The notes under the pieces: generated by a model
The model's input: only the letters and a program-made list of their open reading frames with translations
The model's database searches: none
What the model was told of the DNA's origin: nothing
Part shown: piece after piece, positions 2,814-16,029 of the stretch
How the letters are laid out: every line of letters begins with the position of its first letter
How positions within the stretch are numbered: the first letter of the stretch is position 1
Position numbers and translations under genes: made by a program
From: an uncultured virus (IMG/VR IMGVR_UViG_3300030426_000047)
Taxonomy: Duplodnaviria > Heunggongvirae > Uroviricota > Caudoviricetes
Length of the DNA: 20,000 bases
Virus record (IMG/VR): IMGVR_UViG_3300030426_000047
Direction: 5' to 3' (one strand)

Positions 2814-4313
2814 TTACCGCCCCATGAACCCGGACATATCGAAGCTTGCGCACCGTCTGCCGGTTGATTCGAATTCAATTAACTTTTCCCCGCCTTCCTG
2901 CCTAATGGCAAAGTCCGCCATCGCCCCGGCTATTCCGGAGTCTCCGTGTCGCTTGGTATTATCCTGTCCGGTGTTTTTGGTTGCAGGAAGCTTGGCTACC
3001 CCGTTGATGACTTTGAAGGCCCGGTGATCCTCGATCACGTCTGCGTCTTTTGGCAGCAGGATTGACTTATCTTCAAAGGCTGCTTTGTACTTCGGCATAT
3101 TTTCCCGGTACCAGGCTTCCGACAGCATCACCTGGGATATCTTTTCGATGCCGTATTTCTGCATGGCGACTTCAGCCAGGTATTGACCGTTGCCGCGAGC
3201 ATCGAGTGCGCCATGGTGAAACTTGGGCAAGTGGTCGATGATGAAAAACAGGATCTGGCGTTGCTGATGGAAAGGCATATTGCGCAGTTCGAGCAAGAAG
3301 ACCGCCCGCCAGGTTGCCCCCTGGGTTTCCTGCAGGGGCAGGATAACGGTCAGATCGCCGGTTCTGGCAAAATCCTCGCCGAAGACGGTCTGCCGGTTTG
3401 GGTCGAGTCCTGCCAGCAAAGGCTCCAACACATCTTCGCACCAGGCTTCGATAACACTGCTCCGATGCTCTTCACTCATTTCGTTGAACTCGTCGGTCTG
3501 GCCGTAGCGGATGACCGGGATCTCATCCGACATACATCCCTCGATCATGGTGCGGGCAAGGTATGTGCCTGAGCCTTGAGCAGGTATGCAAAAAAGTTCC
3601 TCCTGGGCGTCATCGCCGTAGGAGGTAACAATCTCCGCCCGCCAGGCCTTTTGTGCCTCCTCGCTCCACACGCTCTTTTTGCGCATGCAGATCCGCTTGT
3701 ATAAACCCTCGTTTAAAGCGTCATCGAAATCGATTCGATGCAGGCTGTATGGCTTGCGCCCGGCGCGGATATCATTCACCAGCTCGTTAAAGGGATTTGT
3801 GTCACCATCATGGGTAGAGATGATCCTGACCTGGCCACCCCACATGAGAAGAGCCAGCGCTGCTTTCAACAGCTCGGCAAGGTTGTCGTGGAATGCTGCC
3901 TCATCGATTATGACCCGACCCTGCTTGCCGCGCAGGTTGTTCGGGCGGCTGGAAAGGGCGACGATCCGATTGCCGGAGGCGAAGGTGATCCGGAAAATCA
4001 GGATGTCCTTGTCTTCATCTTTCAGCACCGACTCCTCGACGGCACCGGCAGCGAATTGATAGTGTTTGGCCCAGGCCGCGCAGTCGTTGATGAACTCTTC
4101 GGCCATGTCCTTGTTGTAGCCGATATACCAGACGTCATCACCGGCGGCGGATGCGGCATAGAGCGTATTGTCAGCGGCCTCGGACCAGGACAAACCGATC
4201 CGCCGCGACTTCTCGCATACCTTGACCGTGGCATTGTCTGCTGCCCACCGTTGCTGATATGGCAGCAGGACGGCCGGGGTCCGGTCTTTTATGCGCGCGC
4301 CGATTTCCATCAT
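2814..4313 (-). CDS. terL: Terminase large subunit (Mu gp28-like)
   Basis: LLPYQ Q-motif, Walker A-like KSRRIGLSW, Walker B VIIDEAAF, coupling motif ISTH, nuclease acidic motifs GEDFARTGD and HGDSGIA. Confidence 0.95.
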   Translation of the reverse strand: MMEIGARIKDRTPAVLLPYQQRWAADNATVKVCEKSRRIGLSWSEAADNTLYAASAAGDDVWYIGYNKDMAEEFINDCAAWAKHYQFAAGAVEESVLKDEDKDILIFRITFASGNRIVALSSRPNNLRGKQGRVIIDEAAFHDNLAELLKAALALLMWGGQVRIISTHDGDTNPFNELVNDIRAGRKPYSLHRIDFDDALNEGLYKRICMRKKSVWSEEAQKAWRAEIVTSYGDDAQEELFCIPAQGSGTYLARTMIEGCMSDEIPVIRYGQTDEFNEMSEEHRSSVIEAWCEDVLEPLLAGLDPNRQTVFGEDFARTGDLTVILPLQETQGATWRAVFLLELRNMPFHQQRQILFFIIDHLPKFHHGALDARGNGQYLAEVAMQKYGIEKISQVMLSEAWYRENMPKYKAAFEDKSILLPKDADVIEDHRAFKVINGVAKLPATKNTGQDNTKRHGDSGIAGAMADFAIRQEGGEKLIEFESTGRRCASFDMSGFMGR

Positions 4314-4753
4314 TCACCTATGCCCAGGATACGCCTGCGAATGTCGTCAACCGTAGCATCGGACAGCCCGCCTTTTTCTTTCTTGATCTCGGTGACAACT
4401 TCTTCGGCCACCCTGTGCGCCTTCTCCATTTTGTCCCAGCGCTCGAGCAGCGCGCCCATTTTGGCTAATGCGTCCATCTTCTGGGCGGTGCGATTCTCGG
4501 GAGTACATTCCTCCAGGTGAGCAAGCTGATCTTCAAAGAGATCACGCAGCCGTTGGATGTTGCCGCGCTTCTGGCTCCTCGCCCGGTCCCACTCGTCCAT
4601 GGTCTGGTTCGGGTCTTTGCTATCCGCCTTCCACCGGGCAAGGCTCGTTACCGAGACGCCCAGCTGCTCGCCGATCGCCGACAGGTTATGGCCGTCCGCA
4701 TATAGCCGCTGCGCCTGGTGACCGAGCACCGCCTTGTCGCCTTTAGTTGCCAA
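4310..4753 (-). CDS. Putative terminase small subunit (DUF1804 / Mu gp27-like HTH protein)
   Basis: N-terminal HTH (AQRLYADGHNLSAIGEQLGVSVTSLARWK...EWDRAR), C-terminal GLSDATVDDIRRRILGI; immediately upstream of and overlapping terL. TTG start at 4753 inferred from an upstream GGAG. Confidence 0.75.
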   Translation of the reverse strand: MATKGDKAVLGHQAQRLYADGHNLSAIGEQLGVSVTSLARWKADSKDPNQTMDEWDRARSQKRGNIQRLRDLFEDQLAHLEECTPENRTAQKMDALAKMGALLERWDKMEKAHRVAEEVVTEIKKEKGGLSDATVDDIRRRILGIGE

Positions 4754-4991
4754 GGGCTTTCTCCAGTGAGTGGATCTGGGTGTTGACCGAGAGCAGGTCC
4801 GCCTGGACCATGACCAGCTCATCCATCTGCTGTGCGGCCAAAGCAATCTCCATGTCCTCGATCTCCAGCAGGTGCGGGTTGATTGCCGGAGCTATCGACC
4901 GGCACAGTCCCTTGCCTTTCATCTGCAGCTGGGTGCGCTTGGCCTTGAGGCCTGCCAGCTTGCCCTGCATCATCAACCTTTCATGACTCAT
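4743..4991 (-). CDS. Hypothetical coiled-coil phage protein (82 aa)
   Basis: ATG at 4991 (MSHERLMMQGKL...) overlaps both neighbours, as in a translationally coupled operon; heptad-like helical sequence. Confidence 0.7.
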   Translation of the reverse strand: MSHERLMMQGKLAGLKAKRTQLQMKGKGLCRSIAPAINPHLLEIEDMEIALAAQQMDELVMVQADLLSVNTQIHSLEKALGN

Positions 4992-5349
4992 CTTGGATAT
5001 CCTTTGGCTTTGCGTTTTTGCGGATGAGTGGGCAGTGCATATTCCCCTCGATAGCCGAGCGCAGCGCCTGCACTTCGGCGGCGGCCCAGACCACCGTTTC
5101 GCGATCGTCTTTCGCCATTTCCCTGTAATTTCCGGCCAAGTCTTTAATCCCTTCAACCTGGGCAAAATTGTTGTTGTACATTGTCACCACTGCCTCGAAT
5201 CGCCTATGCTGGAAAATTGAGATAATGACCAGCACAAGCCAAGGGCCGAGCAACACCCCAAGGCAGAGCGTCATGATCGGCGTTGTGCCGGTGACGCCTA
5301 CCAGGGTAGATAGTGAGTTTAAAAGGGCGGTGATCTCTGCCGGTGACAC
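4981..5349 (-). CDS. Hypothetical membrane protein
   Basis: GTG start at 5349 (TAGTG overlap with the TraR stop) with GGAGGAG RBS; hydrophobic segment IMTLCLGVLLGPWLVLVIISIF. Confidence 0.7.
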   Translation of the reverse strand: MSPAEITALLNSLSTLVGVTGTTPIMTLCLGVLLGPWLVLVIISIFQHRRFEAVVTMYNNNFAQVEGIKDLAGNYREMAKDDRETVVWAAAEVQALRSAIEGNMHCPLIRKNAKPKDIQDES

Positions 5350-5567
5350 TATCGTCTCCTCCTTTCGATTTCCTCTAGCTTTGTGGCACAATCAACACAG
5401 TGGCTGACTCCCGGCAAAAACGTTCGACGTGCTTCGGGGATCTCGTCACCGCAATCGATACAGTTTGTCCTGGACACTCCGGAAAAACCCGCAACCCGTG
5501 CCTGCAGGGACAACGCCTGTTTTAGAAACTGGGCATCCAACTCCTGAGCCTGGTCGAACTGATCCAT
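5349..5567 (-). CDS. TraR/DksA C4-type zinc finger protein
   Basis: MDQFDQAQE N-terminal DxxDxA motif and CIDCGDEIPEARR...PGVSHCVDCA. Confidence 0.93.
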   Translation of the reverse strand: MDQFDQAQELDAQFLKQALSLQARVAGFSGVSRTNCIDCGDEIPEARRTFLPGVSHCVDCATKLEEIERRRR

Positions 5568-6450: not shown

Positions 6451-6771
6451 TTAAAACAGTTTCATCTGACGATCCTCGCCCGGCTGCTGCCCGAGGATCG
6501 TGTAGACATGGCGCTCGCTGAGGTTGTACTTGCGGGCCAGCTCGGTAACGGAAATGCCGCCGCGATCGTATCGCGCCCGGAGCTGCTTATCCCGCCAGCG
6601 GTTCAAATGCCGCTTGTGGCCGAAAAAGCAGGCGGTTGTACCGTTGAATAGCTCCGAGATCTCCAGCGCCGTCCGCACTCCGACCTTTTCCGCCAGCATC
6701 CGCAGATCGCCGTTCAGCTCATCAATTTCGGGCAGGCAGTCATCCGGCAGATCGTCAATCGAGTAGCTCAT
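6451..6771 (-). CDS. mor: Mor/C-family transcription activator
   Basis: LAEKVGVRTALEISELFNGTTACF, RDKQL, and C-terminal HTH SVTELARKYNLSERHVYTIL; last early/middle gene, after gemA. Confidence 0.9.
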   Translation of the reverse strand: MSYSIDDLPDDCLPEIDELNGDLRMLAEKVGVRTALEISELFNGTTACFFGHKRHLNRWRDKQLRARYDRGGISVTELARKYNLSERHVYTILGQQPGEDRQMKLF

Positions 6772-7202
6772 CTCAATTCCCTCTCAGTAAAATCCACGCC
6801 TTCACGAAGCCCCCAGGCTTTCAGGCTTTCGATCAGGATGTGGCAATCGGCACCATCGCACCATTTGAGGTTGTCGATGTGGGTCACTCGTTTAACATAC
6901 GCCTGCAGGGCGCGATCGGATGAATTGCGGATAACCTTTGCCTTTGCCATGGTGATCCACATGGCTACGATCTTCCGATGCTGAGGGTCATCGTATTTTG
7001 GCGACATCTTTTTTGATGACCGCGCCTTCCAGCCCTTAGCCTTGAAGATTTCGAGCAACTTGTCGGCTTGAAATGGAGAAAGGTTTGACGAAGATTTGAC
7101 CTTGAAATTGAAGCTGAGAATATCCCGGTAAATCTCGTCGGTGATGCCGAGTTCCTTCTTGGCGATATGGATCTTTTGACGCTGAGCTGTTGTCGGCGGC
7201 AT
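6768..7202 (-). CDS. gemA: GemA-like regulatory protein (Mu gp16 / DUF1018)
   Basis: KIHIAKKELGITDEIYRDIL, KIVAMW, SDRALQAYVKR, LIESLKAW; directly upstream of mor. Confidence 0.9.
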   Translation of the reverse strand: MPPTTAQRQKIHIAKKELGITDEIYRDILSFNFKVKSSSNLSPFQADKLLEIFKAKGWKARSSKKMSPKYDDPQHRKIVAMWITMAKAKVIRNSSDRALQAYVKRVTHIDNLKWCDGADCHILIESLKAWGLREGVDFTERELR

Positions 7203-7333
7203 TATTTGGTCACCTCCTGAACGGTCGACACATCGTCAGTCCATTGCATTGCACCGCCAAGAAGTTGAGCCGAGCAAGCAGGGCAGAGACTCTCATCGAT
7301 CACTGCAACAGCTCCGCAGCCGCCGCACTTCAT
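7202..7333 (-). CDS. Zinc-ribbon microprotein (43 aa)
   Basis: Not in the ORF track. MKCGGCGAVAVIDESLCPACSAQLLGGAMQWTDDVSTVQEVTK*; ATGA overlap upstream and TAATG overlap with gemA; two CxxC motifs. Confidence 0.7.
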   Translation of the reverse strand: MKCGGCGAVAVIDESLCPACSAQLLGGAMQWTDDVSTVQEVTK

Positions 7334-7875
7334 TTCATCCGATTTACTTTCCATTCTTCCATTTCCTCATCGGTCGGTTTGGTATCCCGCAAGCCTTGGA
7401 CATATTGATCCAGCGGATTCGAGATGGCTGTCGGTACCCGGTTGTTATTGGCGGTTCGGCTGACCGGCCCCTTGTTTCGTTCGGCCTGGGAATCGGCCTG
7501 ATCGGCCATATCCCAGGCGATCGATTTCAGATAATTATGATTCGGCATCGGTAAAGTTAGACGGAAACGCTGCTCGACCATCTTCTCAATTGCCTGCACC
7601 CAGATCCTGGGCGGGCACGGACGAGCGACCTTATGATCGATCTCGACATGACCGGCGGCAACCAGCTGCTTAATTTCAGTCAGCAGCCTGGTTGCCTTTT
7701 TGGTCTGCATGGCCCGACCAGCCACAGGCCGGAAAAGGCTGAGGTAATGGAAGACTACAGGCTGAATTTCCTTCGGCAGATCGACCAGGACACCGCAGAG
7801 CTGCCGGTGTTCGGTCTCGGAGAGGAACCATTCGATCGGTGCGACGGTCCCGCATGTTTGGCATGTTCCGTTCAT
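7330..7875 (-). CDS. Conserved Mu-like prophage protein with N-terminal CxxC
   Basis: Start placed at ATG 7875 (MNGTCQTCG...); YLSLFRP and LPMPNHNYL motifs resemble an early-region family of Mu-like prophages. Confidence 0.75.
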   Translation of the reverse strand: MNGTCQTCGTVAPIEWFLSETEHRQLCGVLVDLPKEIQPVVFHYLSLFRPVAGRAMQTKKATRLLTEIKQLVAAGHVEIDHKVARPCPPRIWVQAIEKMVEQRFRLTLPMPNHNYLKSIAWDMADQADSQAERNKGPVSRTANNNRVPTAISNPLDQYVQGLRDTKPTDEEMEEWKVNRMK

Positions 7876-8045
7876 ATCTTTTTCCACTGGCAGATTTTTC
7901 CGGTACGCCAATCCTTGCACCAGTCTCCTCTTGCCTTGCGGCACCATTCCACAGGACAGCCTGATCCTGCTGGGTAAGCGATACAGCCTGGGAGTTCGAC
8001 GGGTACGTCTCTCCCTGGCTTTTGTTTTGTCTCTTCTTTCACCAT
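7872..8045 (-). CDS. Cys/Trp-rich microprotein (57 aa)
   Basis: Not in the ORF track. MVKEETKQKPGRDVPVELPGCIAYPAGSGCPVEWCRKARGDWCKDWRTGKICQWKKI*; GGAGG RBS, TGATG overlap upstream and ATGA overlap downstream. Confidence 0.7.
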   Translation of the reverse strand: MVKEETKQKPGRDVPVELPGCIAYPAGSGCPVEWCRKARGDWCKDWRTGKICQWKKI

Positions 8046-8287
8046 CACTTACCTCCATTCTCTTGGTGCAACCGGCAATTTTTGGCAATCTCTTGGTCGC
8101 TCAAGACGACGGTACCGTCATCGTCAGGGCCATTCAGCCCGGCAAACGCATCACCCCTGACATAGTTTCTCGCAGGCCTGCCGCTTTGCCTCGGATCCCG
8201 TTTAAGGAATTCAACGACATACTCCTGACCGCCGATATTGCTAAACAGAATCATTTTCGATCCTGGCCTTATTCGATTAGCTTTCAC
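8045..8287 (-). CDS. Hypothetical phage protein (80 aa)
   Basis: GTG start at 8287 behind GGAGGG (VKANRIRPGSK...); directly downstream of the hammerhead ribozyme. Confidence 0.65.
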   Translation of the reverse strand: MKANRIRPGSKMILFSNIGGQEYVVEFLKRDPRQSGRPARNYVRGDAFAGLNGPDDDGTVVLSDQEIAKNCRLHQENGGK

Positions 8288-8304
8288 CTCAAACCCTCCG
8301 TTCA

Positions 8305-8363
8305 GGCTGCTTTTCAAACCGGAGGAACCACCCTCCGATGACCCCGGCATGCCGGGGTTTCGC
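8305..8363 (-). ncRNA. Type II hammerhead ribozyme, U3-A8 core variant
   Basis: - strand: GC GAAA CCCCGG-CAUG-CCGGGG UC AUCGGAGG-GUGGUU-CCUCCGGU UUGAAAA GC AGCC. Shows a 2-bp stem II, GAAA, stem III, GUC cleavage triplet, 8-bp stem I, core UUGAAAA, and a loop I GGUU / 3' AGCC pseudoknot. Intergenic and on the operon's sense strand. Confidence 0.85.
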
Positions 8364-8367
8364 TTTG

Positions 8368-8607
8368 TTATTTGGACGTGACAAAATCCCATTCTTGCAG
8401 ATTCGCAACAATTTCATCGAAACCAGGTACCGAGAATTCGTCTCCAGGATTCATAGTTTCTTTGTTGATTTCGTCTCTCAAAAACATCCCCACGTTTTTT
8501 CTGATTTCGCCGATATTCGTGTTAGTGCTGAAATCTTCGAGCAGCTCATTCATATCGACCAAAACCTTAAAACTGACTGTCACTACCAATGGCCTCAGTT
8601 CTTTCAT
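8368..8607 (-). CDS. Hypothetical acidic phage protein (79 aa)
   Basis: GGAGG RBS, operon orientation; stop lies 4 nt before the ribozyme. Confidence 0.7.
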   Translation of the reverse strand: MKELRPLVVTVSFKVLVDMNELLEDFSTNTNIGEIRKNVGMFLRDEINKETMNPGDEFSVPGFDEIVANLQEWDFVTSK

Positions 8608-8610
8608 GAT

Positions 8611-8820
8611 CTACCTCCCCAGATATCCGCAGTTAACAGCCGACCCTTTACCATTCGTATACGAGCCCAGGTAATGCCCACACGTAACCTTCTTCGTCGG
8701 ATCGGTGATCATGCTCACACAGACACATTCCAGCGGACAATCCGCCACGGTGCAGGCTGAGGTGATAACCGCCATCCGCCGCACGCCTGCCTCTTTGGTA
8801 TCGATCGATGCCATAATCAC
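8611..8820 (-). CDS. Cys-rich small hypothetical protein
   Basis: GTGA overlap with the DUF3164 stop; six Cys (CTVADCPLECVC...CGH...CGY). Exact start is uncertain. Confidence 0.6.
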   Translation of the reverse strand: MIMASIDTKEAGVRRMAVITSACTVADCPLECVCVSMITDPTKKVTCGHYLGSYTNGKGSAVNCGYLGR

Positions 8821-9440
8821 ACCCCCGCAACGTCAAGGGGGATCTGCTCCCAGCGGTCGGTATCCTGCACTCGCTCGTAGATCCGCACATACTCCCGACT
8901 GCCGGCAACAGTAAGACTGTCGTTGATCGCGGCCATGGCCCGCAGCCACCGCTCATCCTCGATATTGAATTTCCGCAAGGAAAGGATCCGCTTGGCGTTG
9001 ACATTACCCGCCCGATCGACAGAGAAGGCGTCGTTCACCAGGGCCTTCAGTTCAGGCCCGGACGAAGCGGTCCACTCATTGAGACATTGGTCGATCAAGT
9101 CCTTCGCCACCTGCAGCCGCTCATCAAAGACAAACGACTCGGCAACGGCCCGCATTACCCGGTACCGGCCGTCAAAGCTCATCAGCGTCACGTTCCCCTT
9201 GTTGCCGCCCAGGCTGGTGTCATACTCCGAGGCTGACAGCTCGATAAACTGCTCGATCTCCTCAAACGCCGAGTTTTTAAACACCTGCAGCATAGCCTTG
9301 ACATCCTTCGCTTTGGCCACCAACGCCTTCACCAACTCATCCCTGATCTTGTCGATATCCTTCACCATCGACTCCGGCACCAGATGGCCCCTGGCGTCTT
9401 CCATGTATCCTTCCGGGATCTGCTTCTTACGCTCTTCCAT
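8817..9440 (-). CDS. DUF3164 family protein
   Basis: IPEGYMEDARGHLVPE, GGNKGNVTLMSFDG, FDERLQVAKDLIDQCL, YVRIYER, IPLDVA. Confidence 0.9.
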   Translation of the reverse strand: MEERKKQIPEGYMEDARGHLVPESMVKDIDKIRDELVKALVAKAKDVKAMLQVFKNSAFEEIEQFIELSASEYDTSLGGNKGNVTLMSFDGRYRVMRAVAESFVFDERLQVAKDLIDQCLNEWTASSGPELKALVNDAFSVDRAGNVNAKRILSLRKFNIEDERWLRAMAAINDSLTVAGSREYVRIYERVQDTDRWEQIPLDVAGV

Positions 9441-10638: not shown

Positions 10639-11328
10639 CTACCCTCTCGCCTCGAAGGCCTTGAGATGCGCACTGGTGATTGACTCCAGCTTGTTCCTCG
10701 CGGCCAGTTGCTCGGCCCTGGTGAACCAGGTCGCGGTCAGCCGAAGCTTGCCCTTGCCGGACTGAGCGATGTAATCGATCGCGCATTCGGAAAGGTTGGC
10801 GCTGCAGATCTCCTCGGCCAGGTCGGCGATCTCGTCACGAGCAAACAGCTCGAACTTGACCACGGCCGTGAACCTGTCATAAAGATGACGAAAACGCTTA
10901 AGCTTTGCGTCGACGTTCTCCATGCCCATCATGATAATCGGCGTATTGGTCATGTCATTGATATCCCGCAGGACCTCGACCGCACCACCTCTGATCAGGT
11001 AGTCGACCTCGTCGATAATGATCGGCCGGGGCCGCTCAATGAGCTGCTCTACTATTCGATTGAATAGTTTGTCGGTGGAAAACTCCGGTGCCTCTCCCAG
11101 TTCGGCCACGATGTTGGCCAGCAGCGACCGCCGTGAGCTGATGTCCCTTGCCCTGATATAGGGGACATCGTTCTGCGCGGCGTACCACTGGCCGACATCT
11201 GTCTTGCCGGTACCGGGAGGGCCAAAAAAAAGGCCGTTGCCGATCCTGCCCTTGATCGGTGTGTTGACCACCTCAACGCCATGCAGAAAGCGCTTAACGT
11301 TCTTGGTGATTGCAAAATTCTCGGTCAT
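10639..11328 (-). CDS. Transposition ATPase (MuB-like AAA+)
   Basis: Walker A GPPGTGKT, Walker B IIIDEVDYL, LRDIND, PIIMMG; directly after the transposase; AGGAGG RBS. Confidence 0.9.
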   Translation of the reverse strand: MTENFAITKNVKRFLHGVEVVNTPIKGRIGNGLFFGPPGTGKTDVGQWYAAQNDVPYIRARDISSRRSLLANIVAELGEAPEFSTDKLFNRIVEQLIERPRPIIIDEVDYLIRGGAVEVLRDINDMTNTPIIMMGMENVDAKLKRFRHLYDRFTAVVKFELFARDEIADLAEEICSANLSECAIDYIAQSGKGKLRLTATWFTRAEQLAARNKLESITSAHLKAFEARG

Positions 11329-11396: not shown

Positions 11397-13607
11397 TTAT
11401 GCATTAGCCCGATGCTGTTCTTCCAGGCCGACCTTCTTCCTTAAATCTCCCTGCAAGGCCATGTAGCTCCGGCCGTTTGCCGAATCGTAATACTTGTTCA
11501 AAAAGTCGAATTCCCATTTGGTGAGCTTGCGTTTTCCCCGCCTGGTCTCGGTCCAGATCTGATCGTAGGTGTCGGCGTCCGAGCGCAGCAGAATCACTTT
11601 TTCCGCTTTCTTTTCCGGCTTAATGGCGGCAAGTTTCTCCTCGTTAAGAGATATGGTTATCGGGTCCGGCCCGGCGTTCAGCCGGGTGATGGTCTCCATG
11701 GCGTCCGCCGCCATCGCCGCCTGATCGAGGGCGGGCGTTGTCGCCGCCTCCCGGCGTACCGGGAATTCGACGATGTTTTCGATCTTGCTCTCACGGTAGG
11801 TAAGAATTTCCTCATGGATATTGGCGACGGCCTGCTCCTTTGCCAGCCGTTTCAATTCTTTTGCACCTTCTTTCACCAGCTTCTTCTGAGCATTTTTGAC
11901 CTTCATCGCCACCTCGGCCCGATTGATGCCGGTGCGTAATGGGTCTTGCGCAATACAGAAGAAGGTGCCTTTCTCGGCGTCGAAGAGATAAATGGTGCCC
12001 AGATCAATCGGATCGAGTTTGACCCGAGCCACGGTGCCGACTTCCGGCAGTGCGTCGCTGATATAGGTGATATTGTCGACGCTGACCCCGGTCTTGCCGA
12101 CCATCCTGGTACCGCCGCTTGCCGCCTCGGCCAGTAGGATATCCAGCGCCCGTTCATTGGCGATAATGCGGATCGACTCCTGCCAGGCCCTGGCCACTTC
12201 GATGGGAGTCCGGTTATTCAGACCGTGGTGCCGGTTTTGATGGTAGATGGCATGGCACCAGCGATCGCAGTATTTTTGCAGTTCCTCGGCTGTCATTCTG
12301 ATTTCGACGCACGATTCCGGCTCCCGGTCCATCAGACGTTCGGCGAAGCTGCGCCGAGCCTCTATGTCTTTGCGATCAGCGACGGAATGGCCGATATAGC
12401 CAGGCATGGTTTCCTGAAAGCTGTGGGCAAAGGTCTTAAAGGCTCGTTCAATATGCGGTTTTGCTTCGGGAGTAAAAGGAGGACACAGGACCTGATCGAT
12501 ATTCAGATCCTCAAAGACCTGGATAATATGACGGCTGACATAGTCGGAACCGTTGTCGGTCTTGGCGATTTCAGGGATTCCCCAGTCGAGCAGGGATCGA
12601 CGGATTAAGGCTGCCACTGCCGTTGCCCTGGATGTCTTTGATACATGTAGCTTAAGCCTTCTGGAGTAGACGTCTATAACCCCTATAAGGCAATACCGGC
12701 CATCGGCCAGCATCACGTCTGCGGGCGTTGAGTCAAATTCCCACACCTGATTAAGCCGCACTACCTGCTCGGAGGCATCGCCCAGGGCGAACTGCCTCTT
12801 GTTTCGCCACTTGTCGGGATTCGTGCAATATTCCAGAAGGCTGGCGTTCTCCTGCTTCCAGCTGTTGACAAATCGCCGAACCGCACTCATGCCTGGAACT
12901 TTGCCGAATCGTACTTCGAGGGCGAGCTGCAGGGTTGCAAAAGTTGAGTGCGGATGTCCCTTCAGCATGCCCAGAATAAAATCTCTTTGCTCAGGACTGA
13001 GCGAGGATGAGCCTTTTTTTGGATTGCAGTAGCCGGGCAACAAGCCGGGCAGGCCGTCCTGCTGAAACGCAGCCTGCCACCGGCACAACGTCGACCAGGA
13101 GACCTGTTTGACGTGTGCCTGGATGTGGTCTGCGATTCTGATCTCACCGCGATTGTAGAGCAGGCAGAACTGGGCAGTCCCTTTCTTGCGGTTCTCGGCT
13201 TGTGAGGCTGCAAGAAAGTTTTCCCAGGTTCGCATGATGTCCCGACGAGCATAGGCGATGGCCTGTTTCTCGGGCGGCAGTGCTCCGAAAGCGGCGAGCT
13301 GCGCCTCGACCTCGATCTTGTGGCGCTCTTCGGCTCCTTTTCGTTCTTGGGCCAGTTCGTTTCCGGCTTCCGCACCGGCTAGGGCTGCAGGTGTCCCGGT
13401 CAGAAGCATAGCGGTAGCGTCATGGCGGGCGAAAGCAATACGCACGTCATCCGGTAAATAACGAATGACGTACATCATTTCAAACCCGCCCTGAACACGC
13501 CTTTTGACGATTTTCCAGTTTTCCTTGTCGGCTCGACGCCTTACGGATCTCTGGGTGATATCGAGTGCGGCGGCTATCTCGCTGGCGCTGACGGTTTTCA
13601 TGCTCAT
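11397..13607 (-). CDS. Mu-like DDE transposase A
   Basis: N-terminal Mu DNA-binding-like domain (SASEIAAALDITQRSVRRRADKENW...RVQGG), HTH (VSWSTLCRW), DDE core WEFDST / KTDNGSDY / KPHIERAF, YHQNRHHGL. Confidence 0.95.
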   Translation of the reverse strand: MSMKTVSASEIAAALDITQRSVRRRADKENWKIVKRRVQGGFEMMYVIRYLPDDVRIAFARHDATAMLLTGTPAALAGAEAGNELAQERKGAEERHKIEVEAQLAAFGALPPEKQAIAYARRDIMRTWENFLAASQAENRKKGTAQFCLLYNRGEIRIADHIQAHVKQVSWSTLCRWQAAFQQDGLPGLLPGYCNPKKGSSSLSPEQRDFILGMLKGHPHSTFATLQLALEVRFGKVPGMSAVRRFVNSWKQENASLLEYCTNPDKWRNKRQFALGDASEQVVRLNQVWEFDSTPADVMLADGRYCLIGVIDVYSRRLKLHVSKTSRATAVAALIRRSLLDWGIPEIAKTDNGSDYVSRHIIQVFEDLNIDQVLCPPFTPEAKPHIERAFKTFAHSFQETMPGYIGHSVADRKDIEARRSFAERLMDREPESCVEIRMTAEELQKYCDRWCHAIYHQNRHHGLNNRTPIEVARAWQESIRIIANERALDILLAEAASGGTRMVGKTGVSVDNITYISDALPEVGTVARVKLDPIDLGTIYLFDAEKGTFFCIAQDPLRTGINRAEVAMKVKNAQKKLVKEGAKELKRLAKEQAVANIHEEILTYRESKIENIVEFPVRREAATTPALDQAAMAADAMETITRLNAGPDPITISLNEEKLAAIKPEKKAEKVILLRSDADTYDQIWTETRRGKRKLTKWEFDFLNKYYDSANGRSYMALQGDLRKKVGLEEQHRANA

Positions 13608-15494: not shown

Positions 15495-15523
15495 ATTATT
15501 AACGAATCATTAATTTATGTCAA
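15495..15523 (-). promoter_or_regulatory. Early lytic sigma70 promoter (Pe-like)
   Basis: - strand TTGACA (15523-15518), 17-bp spacer, AATAAT (15500-15495), pointing into the ner-like gene. Confidence 0.7.
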
Positions 15524-15543
15524 CAGAAAACAACGATTCGTTG
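15498..15543. promoter_or_regulatory. Putative repressor operators
   Basis: Related dyads ATTAACGAATCATTAAT (15498-15514) and CAACGATTCGTTG (15531-15543); the first covers the promoter spacer. Confidence 0.55.
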
Positions 15544-16029
15544 ATTGAAGCGGACGTGATTGAACGCGCCAAGACCATTGCGCGCACAAGCACAGATAAA
15601 GACTTTGCCGATATTTTGGGGATTTCTAGCGCTGATTTCGGACAAAGAAAAAAGAGATCAACTCTCCTTCCTCTGATAACGCGATGGGCCATTAAACAGA
15701 ATGTTGATTTGAACTACCTGCTAAGGGGATCTTCGACAGCAACCTCAAACTCGCTTGACCCTGACCCTGAGATAGCCAGTCTATTGGAGGGTGCTAGGCG
15801 TGTTTTGACCAGTGGCAACCCGATAGCTTTCGATGCACTTGAACGAAACATCAGGTATTTCGCGCACGCTATCGCGGCAGAGAAACGCGCCGATGAAATG
15901 GGCAGACAGATTCAAGAAATGAAAGATGATTTCAATATTATCAAAGCAGAAATGGCCAGACTGAAACGCGAAAACTTGCGTATCGATATGGATGCAGAGG
16001 AACAATCATTAAAGAAGAAAGCAAGGTGA
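15517..16029 (+). CDS. Prophage repressor (CI-type HTH, no S24 peptidase domain)
   Basis: DKDFADILGISSADFGQRKKR...NVDLNYLLRG phage-repressor HTH; divergent from the ner-like gene; C-terminal coiled coil. Confidence 0.85.
   Translation: MSTENNDSLIEADVIERAKTIARTSTDKDFADILGISSADFGQRKKRSTLLPLITRWAIKQNVDLNYLLRGSSTATSNSLDPDPEIASLLEGARRVLTSGNPIAFDALERNIRYFAHAIAAEKRADEMGRQIQEMKDDFNIIKAEMARLKRENLRIDMDAEEQSLKKKAR

Follow-up and report, generated by a model that had tools for sequence, protein, structure and literature searches.

Perreault et al. (2011; PMC3088659) described type II hammerhead ribozymes whose loop I forms a pseudoknot with the 3' tail and whose stem II can be reduced to as little as 2 bp. 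In the part of that report drawn upon here, hammerheads are found near prophage genes, and a single gene or a short block of genes can be flanked by several of them. The same part states that the core positions C3/G8 covary to U3/A8 in a number of natural ribozymes and that activity of these pairs in vitro had been shown. A U3-A8 covariant with about 1,300 descriptor hits is also listed for Penelope-like elements in the section used of Cervera and de la Pena (2014; PMC4209133). The extract considered of Eckert et al. (2023; PMC10085705) names the genes of Mu-like phages as those with which hammerhead and twister ribozymes of bacteria are most strongly associated. Cleavage ends of three type II hammerheads were recorded in Desulfovibrio vulgaris RNA by cyPhyRNA-seq, as given in the corresponding portion of Olzog et al. 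(2021; PMC8782182).

Here, we analysed a stretch of 20,000 nucleotides (in the following termed the window) from an uncultured virus of the Caudoviricetes (IMG/VR record IMGVR_UViG_3300030426_000047), which contains a candidate for such a ribozyme on its - strand. In topology, pseudoknot and prophage intergenic setting the window element resembles the type II class (RF02276; PMC3088659), as far as this class is portrayed in the part of the report cited above, and it shares the core of the class except for U3/A8 in place of C3/G8 and a rare A at position N7. The natural U3-A8 covariants in the cited portions of PMC3088659 and PMC4209133 display the same compensated exchange of C3-G8; the motifs of the Penelope-like elements are, however, described there as eukaryotic mini-hammerheads of type I, whereas the window element is of type II. 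The three Desulfovibrio vulgaris ribozymes (loc 1-3), according to the portion used of PMC8782182, are likewise of type II and located near hypothetical and phage-like genes, but they belong to another host family and another prophage than the window, and this likeness is one of type and setting. Finally, the window provides a case of the association with Mu-like phages outlined in the extract of PMC10085705, the slot between DUF3164 and gemA being a tally of the present analysis. Ribozyme class, type II form, pseudoknot, U3-A8 core and the association with Mu-like phages have all been published, and as a discovery the element, a further copy whose core variant and context had both been described, matters little.

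Identity and genomic setting of the element

The Rfam model Hammerhead_II (RF02276) matched the - strand over its complete length (model positions 1-66 of 66) with a score of 48.7 bits, compared to a cut-off of 37 bits, and an E-value of 1.9e-07 (Table 1). It is the sole Rfam family above its gathering score on both strands of the window, and a permissive Rfam scan of the window added chance-level matches to unrelated families only. A lineage model made from the hammerhead elements of related viral loci, termed R1, assigned 75.2 bits to the window element. A preliminary description, prepared from the sequence alone, had interpreted the intergenic gap as a type II hammerhead with a 2-bp stem II, a pseudoknot between loop I and the 3' tail and a compensatory U3-A8 core. 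Reading of the sequence retrieved all of its listed elements at the stated coordinates on the - strand, the Rfam search, which it had proposed as a check, agrees with the type and with the short stem II, and the homologues treated below bear out the same two features as well as the pseudoknot and the core. The data support the assignment of the window element to the type II hammerhead family.

The order of the helices is that of type II, with an open stem II of 2 bp and with stems I and III closed by loops. Stem III is composed of A15.1-U16.1 and six G-C pairs, and stem I of eight pairs, seven of the Watson-Crick type and one U.G. Apart from positions 3 and 8, all consensus core bases are present, namely U4, G5 and A6 (8316-8314), A9 (8311) and G12-A14 (8361-8359), and A15.1-U16.1 (8358/8341) and H17, here C17, also match the consensus. 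In an alignment of 22 sequences these bases are invariant, except for H17, which is C or A. The exchanged positions U3 and A8 correspond to nucleotides 8317 and 8312 of the core strand. The predicted scissile bond between 8340 and 8339, derived from the Rfam alignment, lies 52 nt upstream of the GTG at 8287, in accordance with the approximate distance proposed earlier. Calculation of the minimum-free-energy fold returned stems I and III; the z-score of the folding energy is, however, only -1.84, and 11 of 200 shuffled sequences fold equally well, so that the case rests on the covariance model and on the comparison of homologues and not on folding energy.

Table 1. Coordinates of the ribozyme parts and of the surrounding genes in the window, listed in the direction of transcription.
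Feature	Position	Strand	Remarks
Mu-type transposase (rve core and Mu-transpos_C)	11397..13607	-	
MuB-like AAA ATPase	10639-11328	-	
DUF3164 gene	8817..9440	-	PF11363, E 2.9e-83; marker upstream of the ribozyme slot
Small ORF	8611-8820	-	between DUF3164 and the 79-aa ORF
79-aa ORF upstream of the ribozyme	8368..8607	-	stop TAA 8368-8370, 4 nt before stem II
Type II hammerhead ribozyme, whole Rfam match	8301..8365	-	RF02276 and R1
Stem II, 5' strand GC	8362..8363	-	pairs with 8309-8310 (G8363-C8362 with G8310-C8309)
Core G12 A13 A14	8359..8361	-	invariant in 22/22 aligned elements
Stem III hairpin	8341..8358	-	8358-8352 with 8347-8341, 7 pairs, loop CAUG
C17	8340	-	position from Rfam alignment; predicted cleavage 3' of C17 (8340/8339)
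Stem I hairpin	8318..8339	-	8339-8332 with 8325-8318, loop GUGGUU
Core strand UUGAAAA (U3 U4 G5 A6 A7 A8 A9)	8311..8317	-	consensus CUGANGA
Stem II, 3' strand GC	8309..8310	-	from sequence and RF02276
3' tail AGCC	8305..8308	-	possible pseudoknot with loop I GGUU (8329-8326)
Shine-Dalgarno sequence GGAGGG of the downstream gene	8294..8299	-	6 nt before GTG 8287
80-aa ORF downstream of the ribozyme	8045..8287	-	GTG start
252-aa ORF	7330-8088	-	
gemA, downstream of the ribozyme	6768..7202	-	PF06252, E 5.3e-30
mor-family transcription activator	6451..6771	-	PF08765, E 4.9e-09

Domain matches around the element yield the order MuA, MuB-like ATPase, DUF3164, hammerhead, GemA and Mor, as it had been read before from the sequence; mor is followed on the - strand by genes for an SLT transglycosylase, a terminase, the Mu portal and Mu F. 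Two further features typical of Mu-like phages were noted, a gene for a CI-type repressor (15517-16029, + strand), which diverges from the early operon, and, downstream of mor, an ORF with a TraR/DksA zinc finger (5349-5567, - strand). Surrounded by these Mu-like phage genes, the hammerhead fills the gap between the 79-aa and the 80-aa ORF on the coding strand. Neither of these two ORFs has a match in Pfam or PHROG. The 80-aa ORF is 79% identical to an ORF of the viral locus L005, and its start at GTG 8287 is supported by the GGAGGG motif located 6 nt upstream and by the alignment with L005, which begins at this codon. A longer ORF of 115 aa (8045-8392, ATG at 8392), which would render the element coding, was rejected because the protein conservation in L005 begins at GTG 8287 and because the element evolves through paired RNA changes. 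Between 7800 and 9000 we found neither a promoter-like site nor a terminator-like site on the - strand, which makes a co-transcription of the ribozyme with the early operon plausible.

A blastn comparison of window positions 7900-8900 with phage GenBank records gave no match. Another IMG/VR record (G001) is 100% identical to the window across 4,570 nt and carries the identical element. The nearest bacterial records are metagenome-assembled genomes (MAGs) of Desulfobulbaceae and Desulfopila, whose DUF3164 genes are 85-99% identical to that of the window. The closest genomic relatives of the prophage are Desulfobulbaceae MAGs.

Homologous elements and conservation of the fold

By means of the DUF3164 gene, 44 related viral loci were gathered, which are referred to by L numbers. 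Two successive sets of 20 loci were scanned with Hammerhead_II, which exceeded its threshold in 9 loci of the first set and in 18 of the second, and R1 revealed homologous elements downstream of DUF3164 in 28 of the 44. With R1, no hammerhead was detected in the remaining 16 loci (L009-L017, L019, L020 and L041-L045), and in 13 of these (L009-L017, L019, L020, L041 and L042) no other ribozyme family of Rfam reached its gathering score. At positions 5727-5906 of L015, downstream of DUF3164, Rfam matches to isrK (51.6 bits) and to C4 antisense RNA (60.1 bits) lie adjacent to each other. Hammerheads are also present in four to five of nine bacterial genome loci (L305, L306, L308 and L309/L310), the carriers being two Desulfobulbaceae-type MAGs, one unclassified Proteobacteria MAG and one Acinetobacter. 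Wherever gemA and mor were covered by the fetched DNA (8 of 11 representative loci), the hammerhead lies between DUF3164 and these two genes; the fetched stretch of the remaining three loci yielded no GemA. Two additional candidates were dropped, a second hammerhead in L305 (4021-4125), which obtained 17.2 bits with the lineage model and no Rfam match at E-values up to 1, and a partial antisense match of 22 nt in L030 (E 0.97 with the lineage model).

For the analysis of covariation 22 of 30 elements were aligned, those left out (L002, L005, L024, L026, L032, L034, L036 and L039) being identical to kept rows or different from them by 1-2 bases; the aligned structure included the pseudoknot and the pair between positions 3 and 8. 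Standard pairs are formed in 95.2% of the alignment cells, and 16 of the 25 pairs have changed on both sides, counts which, given the shared descent of the homologous elements, do not represent independent events. None of 500 shuffles reached any of the observed covariation measures, and the pairing dropped to 31-41% when the 3' partners were slid by 1-3 columns. Double-sided changes affect seven of nine aligned pairs in stem III and seven of eight in stem I. Stem II is nearly uniform in the 22 homologues; its first pair is G-C in 21 of them and G-U in one, and its second pair is C-G in 21 and unpaired in one. In the pseudoknot, columns 41 and 65 covary (C-G in 14 and G-C in 8 of the 22 elements), and columns 42 and 64 form G-C throughout (22/22). 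The pair between positions 3 and 8 is C-G in 19 elements, U-A in three and mismatched in none, which is the covariation that the preliminary description had anticipated for homologous prophage intergenic regions. The overall pattern corresponds to what a conserved hammerhead fold predicts and shows that the element is conserved under selection for this fold.

Two hammerheads (4273-4338 and 5085-5149) occur in L003 and L308, which represent the closest Desulfobulbaceae prophage relative, and bracket three small ORFs (4351-5082). The first of them has a U3-A8 core and the second a canonical one. The 5' half of the second hammerhead is identical to that of the window element, and its stem I contains an A.G mismatch. 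This second copy, L308b/L003b, either resulted from recombination of two ribozymes or represents an intermediate, by one step, between the stem of an L306-like element and that of a window-like one.

The neighbourhood of the homologous elements also brings up a different weighting of their role, namely that an active ribozyme is kept mainly for a function at the DNA level, as a conserved island at which unrelated early-gene cassettes recombine, and not as a tuner of gemA and mor. In pairwise comparisons the element is 84-92% identical between flanks that are non-homologous, L003, L006 and L007 align locally only over the ca. 60-74 nt of the ribozyme, and the homology to L004/L005 resumes at window position 8370, 5 nt before the element. 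Moreover, the flanking ORFs of the window and of L308 are devoid of protein similarity, and in the second copy of L308, which carries the A.G mismatch, a window-like 5' half is joined to a canonical 3' half. However, crossing over at any conserved sequence is an incidental outcome of its conservation, one C-to-A change in an L306-like element accounts for the mismatch in L308b just as well, and the covariation indicates selection on RNA pairing and not on the DNA sequence. We consider a primary role at the DNA level to be unlikely and prefer an RNA-level function of a self-cleaving hammerhead.

The exchange at core positions 3 and 8

The U3-A8 core, in each case combined with A7, is carried by the window and the record identical to it, by L004/L005 and by the first copy in L003 and L308. 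These carriers comprise three distinct sequences, which differ only in loop III and in pair-preserving changes of stem I (A-U to C-G and G-C to G.U). The nearest canonical element, that of L305, has stems identical to those of the first copy in L308 (L308a) and differs from it essentially in the core letters.

For a broader comparison, viral contigs were scanned with one type II pattern in all four combinations of positions 3 and 8, and matches with at least five consecutive pairs in both stems were counted as folded. U3-A8 gave 50 raw matches with three folded elements plus one real element which failed only through an N, all four of them belonging to this lineage. The two single changes gave 48 (U3-G8) and 28 (C3-A8) raw matches, none of which folded. 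For C3-G8, the matches listed comprise 155 elements in 133 loci, of which at least 111 folded. An A at N7 is rare and was found in 3 of 111 canonical elements among the matches listed. A second scan in metagenomes, limited to stem III of the lineage and left open at positions 3 and 8, provided 17 elements, all of them folded, with C-G in 15, U-A in two and no mismatch; both U-A elements are sequences already known.

Within the scanned pattern, which demands GCGAAA and AGCAGC and to which U3-A8 hammerheads with another stem II or tail are invisible, positions 3 and 8 change together or not at all, as had been supposed beforehand from the window element. Under the same restriction, the U-A form is rare and confined to one small clade of Desulfobulbaceae prophages. 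The U3-A8 core of the window is best described as a putative compensated double change of the C3-G8 tertiary pair. Near-identical backgrounds such as L305 and L308a contain either C3-G8 or U3-A8 and never an intermediate, which supports the view that the 3-8 pair is a tertiary contact under selection. The evidence that the U3-A8 form itself persists under selection is thin, because the lineage is small and contains three distinct sequences. The tolerance to an exchange of the 3-8 pair reportedly depends on surrounding elements, to go by the title of a 2007 article of Przybilski and Hammann, to which Perreault et al. refer for the in vitro activity of such pairs, and the activity of the U3-A8 core in this context cannot, therefore, be assumed to equal that of C3-G8.

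The deviating core might alternatively be that of a decaying relic which is catalytically dead, its core having drifted at three positions (C3U, N7A and G8A) so that only two hairpins remain. Its Rfam score of 48.7 bits is below the 54.8-74 bits of the canonical relatives, and the U3-A8 form is rare, four elements in viral contigs standing against at least 111 canonical ones and two of the 17 metagenome elements carrying it. But the drift would have hit both partners of the 3-8 pair and, in N7, a free position, and would have left all other core bases intact, and the single-change combinations were never found in a folded state (0/48 and 0/28). Furthermore, the stems of the U3-A8 lineage keep their pairing by a compensatory change from A-U to C-G, and natural U3-A8 covariation is reported, with reference to activity in vitro, in the part of PMC3088659 used here. 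A dead relic is, in our judgement, very improbable. That the GC-rich hairpins are no ribozyme in function but a terminator, an attenuator or a protein-binding site can practically be dismissed, since the terminator-like call on the + strand (8340-8359, stem III antisense and then TTTCGCTTTGTT) is one such site versus 1.1 expected from shuffles, no T-run follows either hairpin on the - strand, and the covariation of the 3-8 pair and of the pseudoknot, like the invariant core (GAAA and UGA..A), would be left unexplained. The call on the + strand arises from the GAAA core together with the upstream A-rich stop region, read backwards.

Stop codon, ribosome-binding site and possible function

The position of the ribozyme between two reading frames is tightly defined among the relatives. 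In all of 35 elements, which include duplicates in the form of the same prophage from two collections, the stop codon of the upstream ORF ends at most 2 nt from model position 1, which places it 0-4 nt ahead of stem II. In 21 of them a start codon with a Shine-Dalgarno-like motif (lacking in one case) comes no more than 22 nt after stem II, in 11 the start codon comes at 77-80 nt, and in three it is located elsewhere or absent. In Mu-like loci of the Acinetobacter type (L030, 3989-4387; L021, 4052-4387), an ORF with an Acb2/Tad1 hairpin domain, which characterizes a family of anti-defence sponges (PF24729, E about 1e-13), is found just upstream of the hammerhead, as is an HU gene; in L030 the stop codon of the Acb2/Tad1 ORF abuts the start of the ribozyme at 4386.

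The layout was also surveyed class-wide on canonical C3-G8 elements, which were found by the pattern and not by homology to the locus. Among the matches listed, 73 of 108 have a stop codon that follows six or more open codons and ends between -1 and +2 nt relative to the first G of stem II, compared to 6-18 of 108 in control windows of 4 nt further upstream. A Shine-Dalgarno-like motif begins at most 10 nt after stem II in 63 of 110 of the matches listed. The tight succession of stop codon, ribozyme and ribosome-binding site thus looks like a property of the class. A dense ribozyme cluster was encountered in L222 (2,946 nt of a viral contig of 57 kb), where ten canonical type II pattern matches, among those listed, are distributed over about 3 kb, roughly one per 250-400 nt.

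In synthetic biology, hammerheads serve as insulators in a comparable position. RiboJ is a synthetic insulator part from a plant satellite RNA, and insulators of this type place a hammerhead and a hairpin before the ribosome-binding site and make downstream expression independent of the upstream RNA. The window exhibits an analogous layout of stop codon, ribozyme, Shine-Dalgarno sequence and start, a likeness that may be understood as a functional analogy only.

Based on the covariance models and the comparison of homologues we propose that the window element is very probably a functional type II hammerhead in the early mRNA of a Mu-like prophage, which cuts itself after C17 and whose U3-A8 core keeps its activity. 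In this scenario, the ribozyme would be transcribed within a long early mRNA, and the RNA would fold into stems I and III, the 2-bp stem II and the pseudoknot between loop I and the 3' tail, the double change to U3-A8 keeping the ribozyme active. Self-cleavage after C17 (8340) would generate two RNA halves. The upstream RNA, encoding the transposase, the MuB-like ATPase, DUF3164 and the small ORFs, would keep its stop codon and presumably end with the stem III hairpin and a 2',3'-cyclic phosphate. The downstream RNA, encompassing the 80-aa ORF, the 252-aa ORF, gemA and mor, would carry a 5'-OH and have the stem I hairpin at its front, starting 30 nt ahead of the tail, with the Shine-Dalgarno sequence close behind. 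Stability and translation of the two halves, the transposition genes on the one hand and the block ending with gemA and mor on the other, might become uncoupled, and the ribozyme might act as an insulator or processing site. One may further conjecture, with the preliminary description, a tuning of gemA and mor or of middle or late gene activation by the ribozyme.

The distances also allow a more speculative extension. As in phage type II hammerheads, including that of the window, the stop codon lies 0-4 nt from stem II and the ribosome-binding site about 10-20 nt after it, a terminating ribosome would have to open stem II together with a portion of stem III. Whether the ribozyme folds and cuts might then depend on the translation of the preceding gene, and the cut would sever the translational coupling to the downstream gene, the element being a translation-sensing mark and not a constitutive processing site. 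We regard such a gating by translation as rather unlikely. The rare U3-A8/A7 core could, on this premise, be a rate-tuned version of a translation-gated switch in the phage clade.

Irrespective of the exact role of the self-cleaving hammerhead, two aspects extend beyond the single locus. First, searches with the consensus string CUGANGA miss real members which a covariance model finds; the window element with its UUGAAAA core is an example, as had been predicted for it. Second, the early operons of Mu-like phages of Desulfobulbaceae and Acinetobacter contain a recurrent ribozyme slot between DUF3164 and gemA, which offers a place to test the role of hammerheads in phages.
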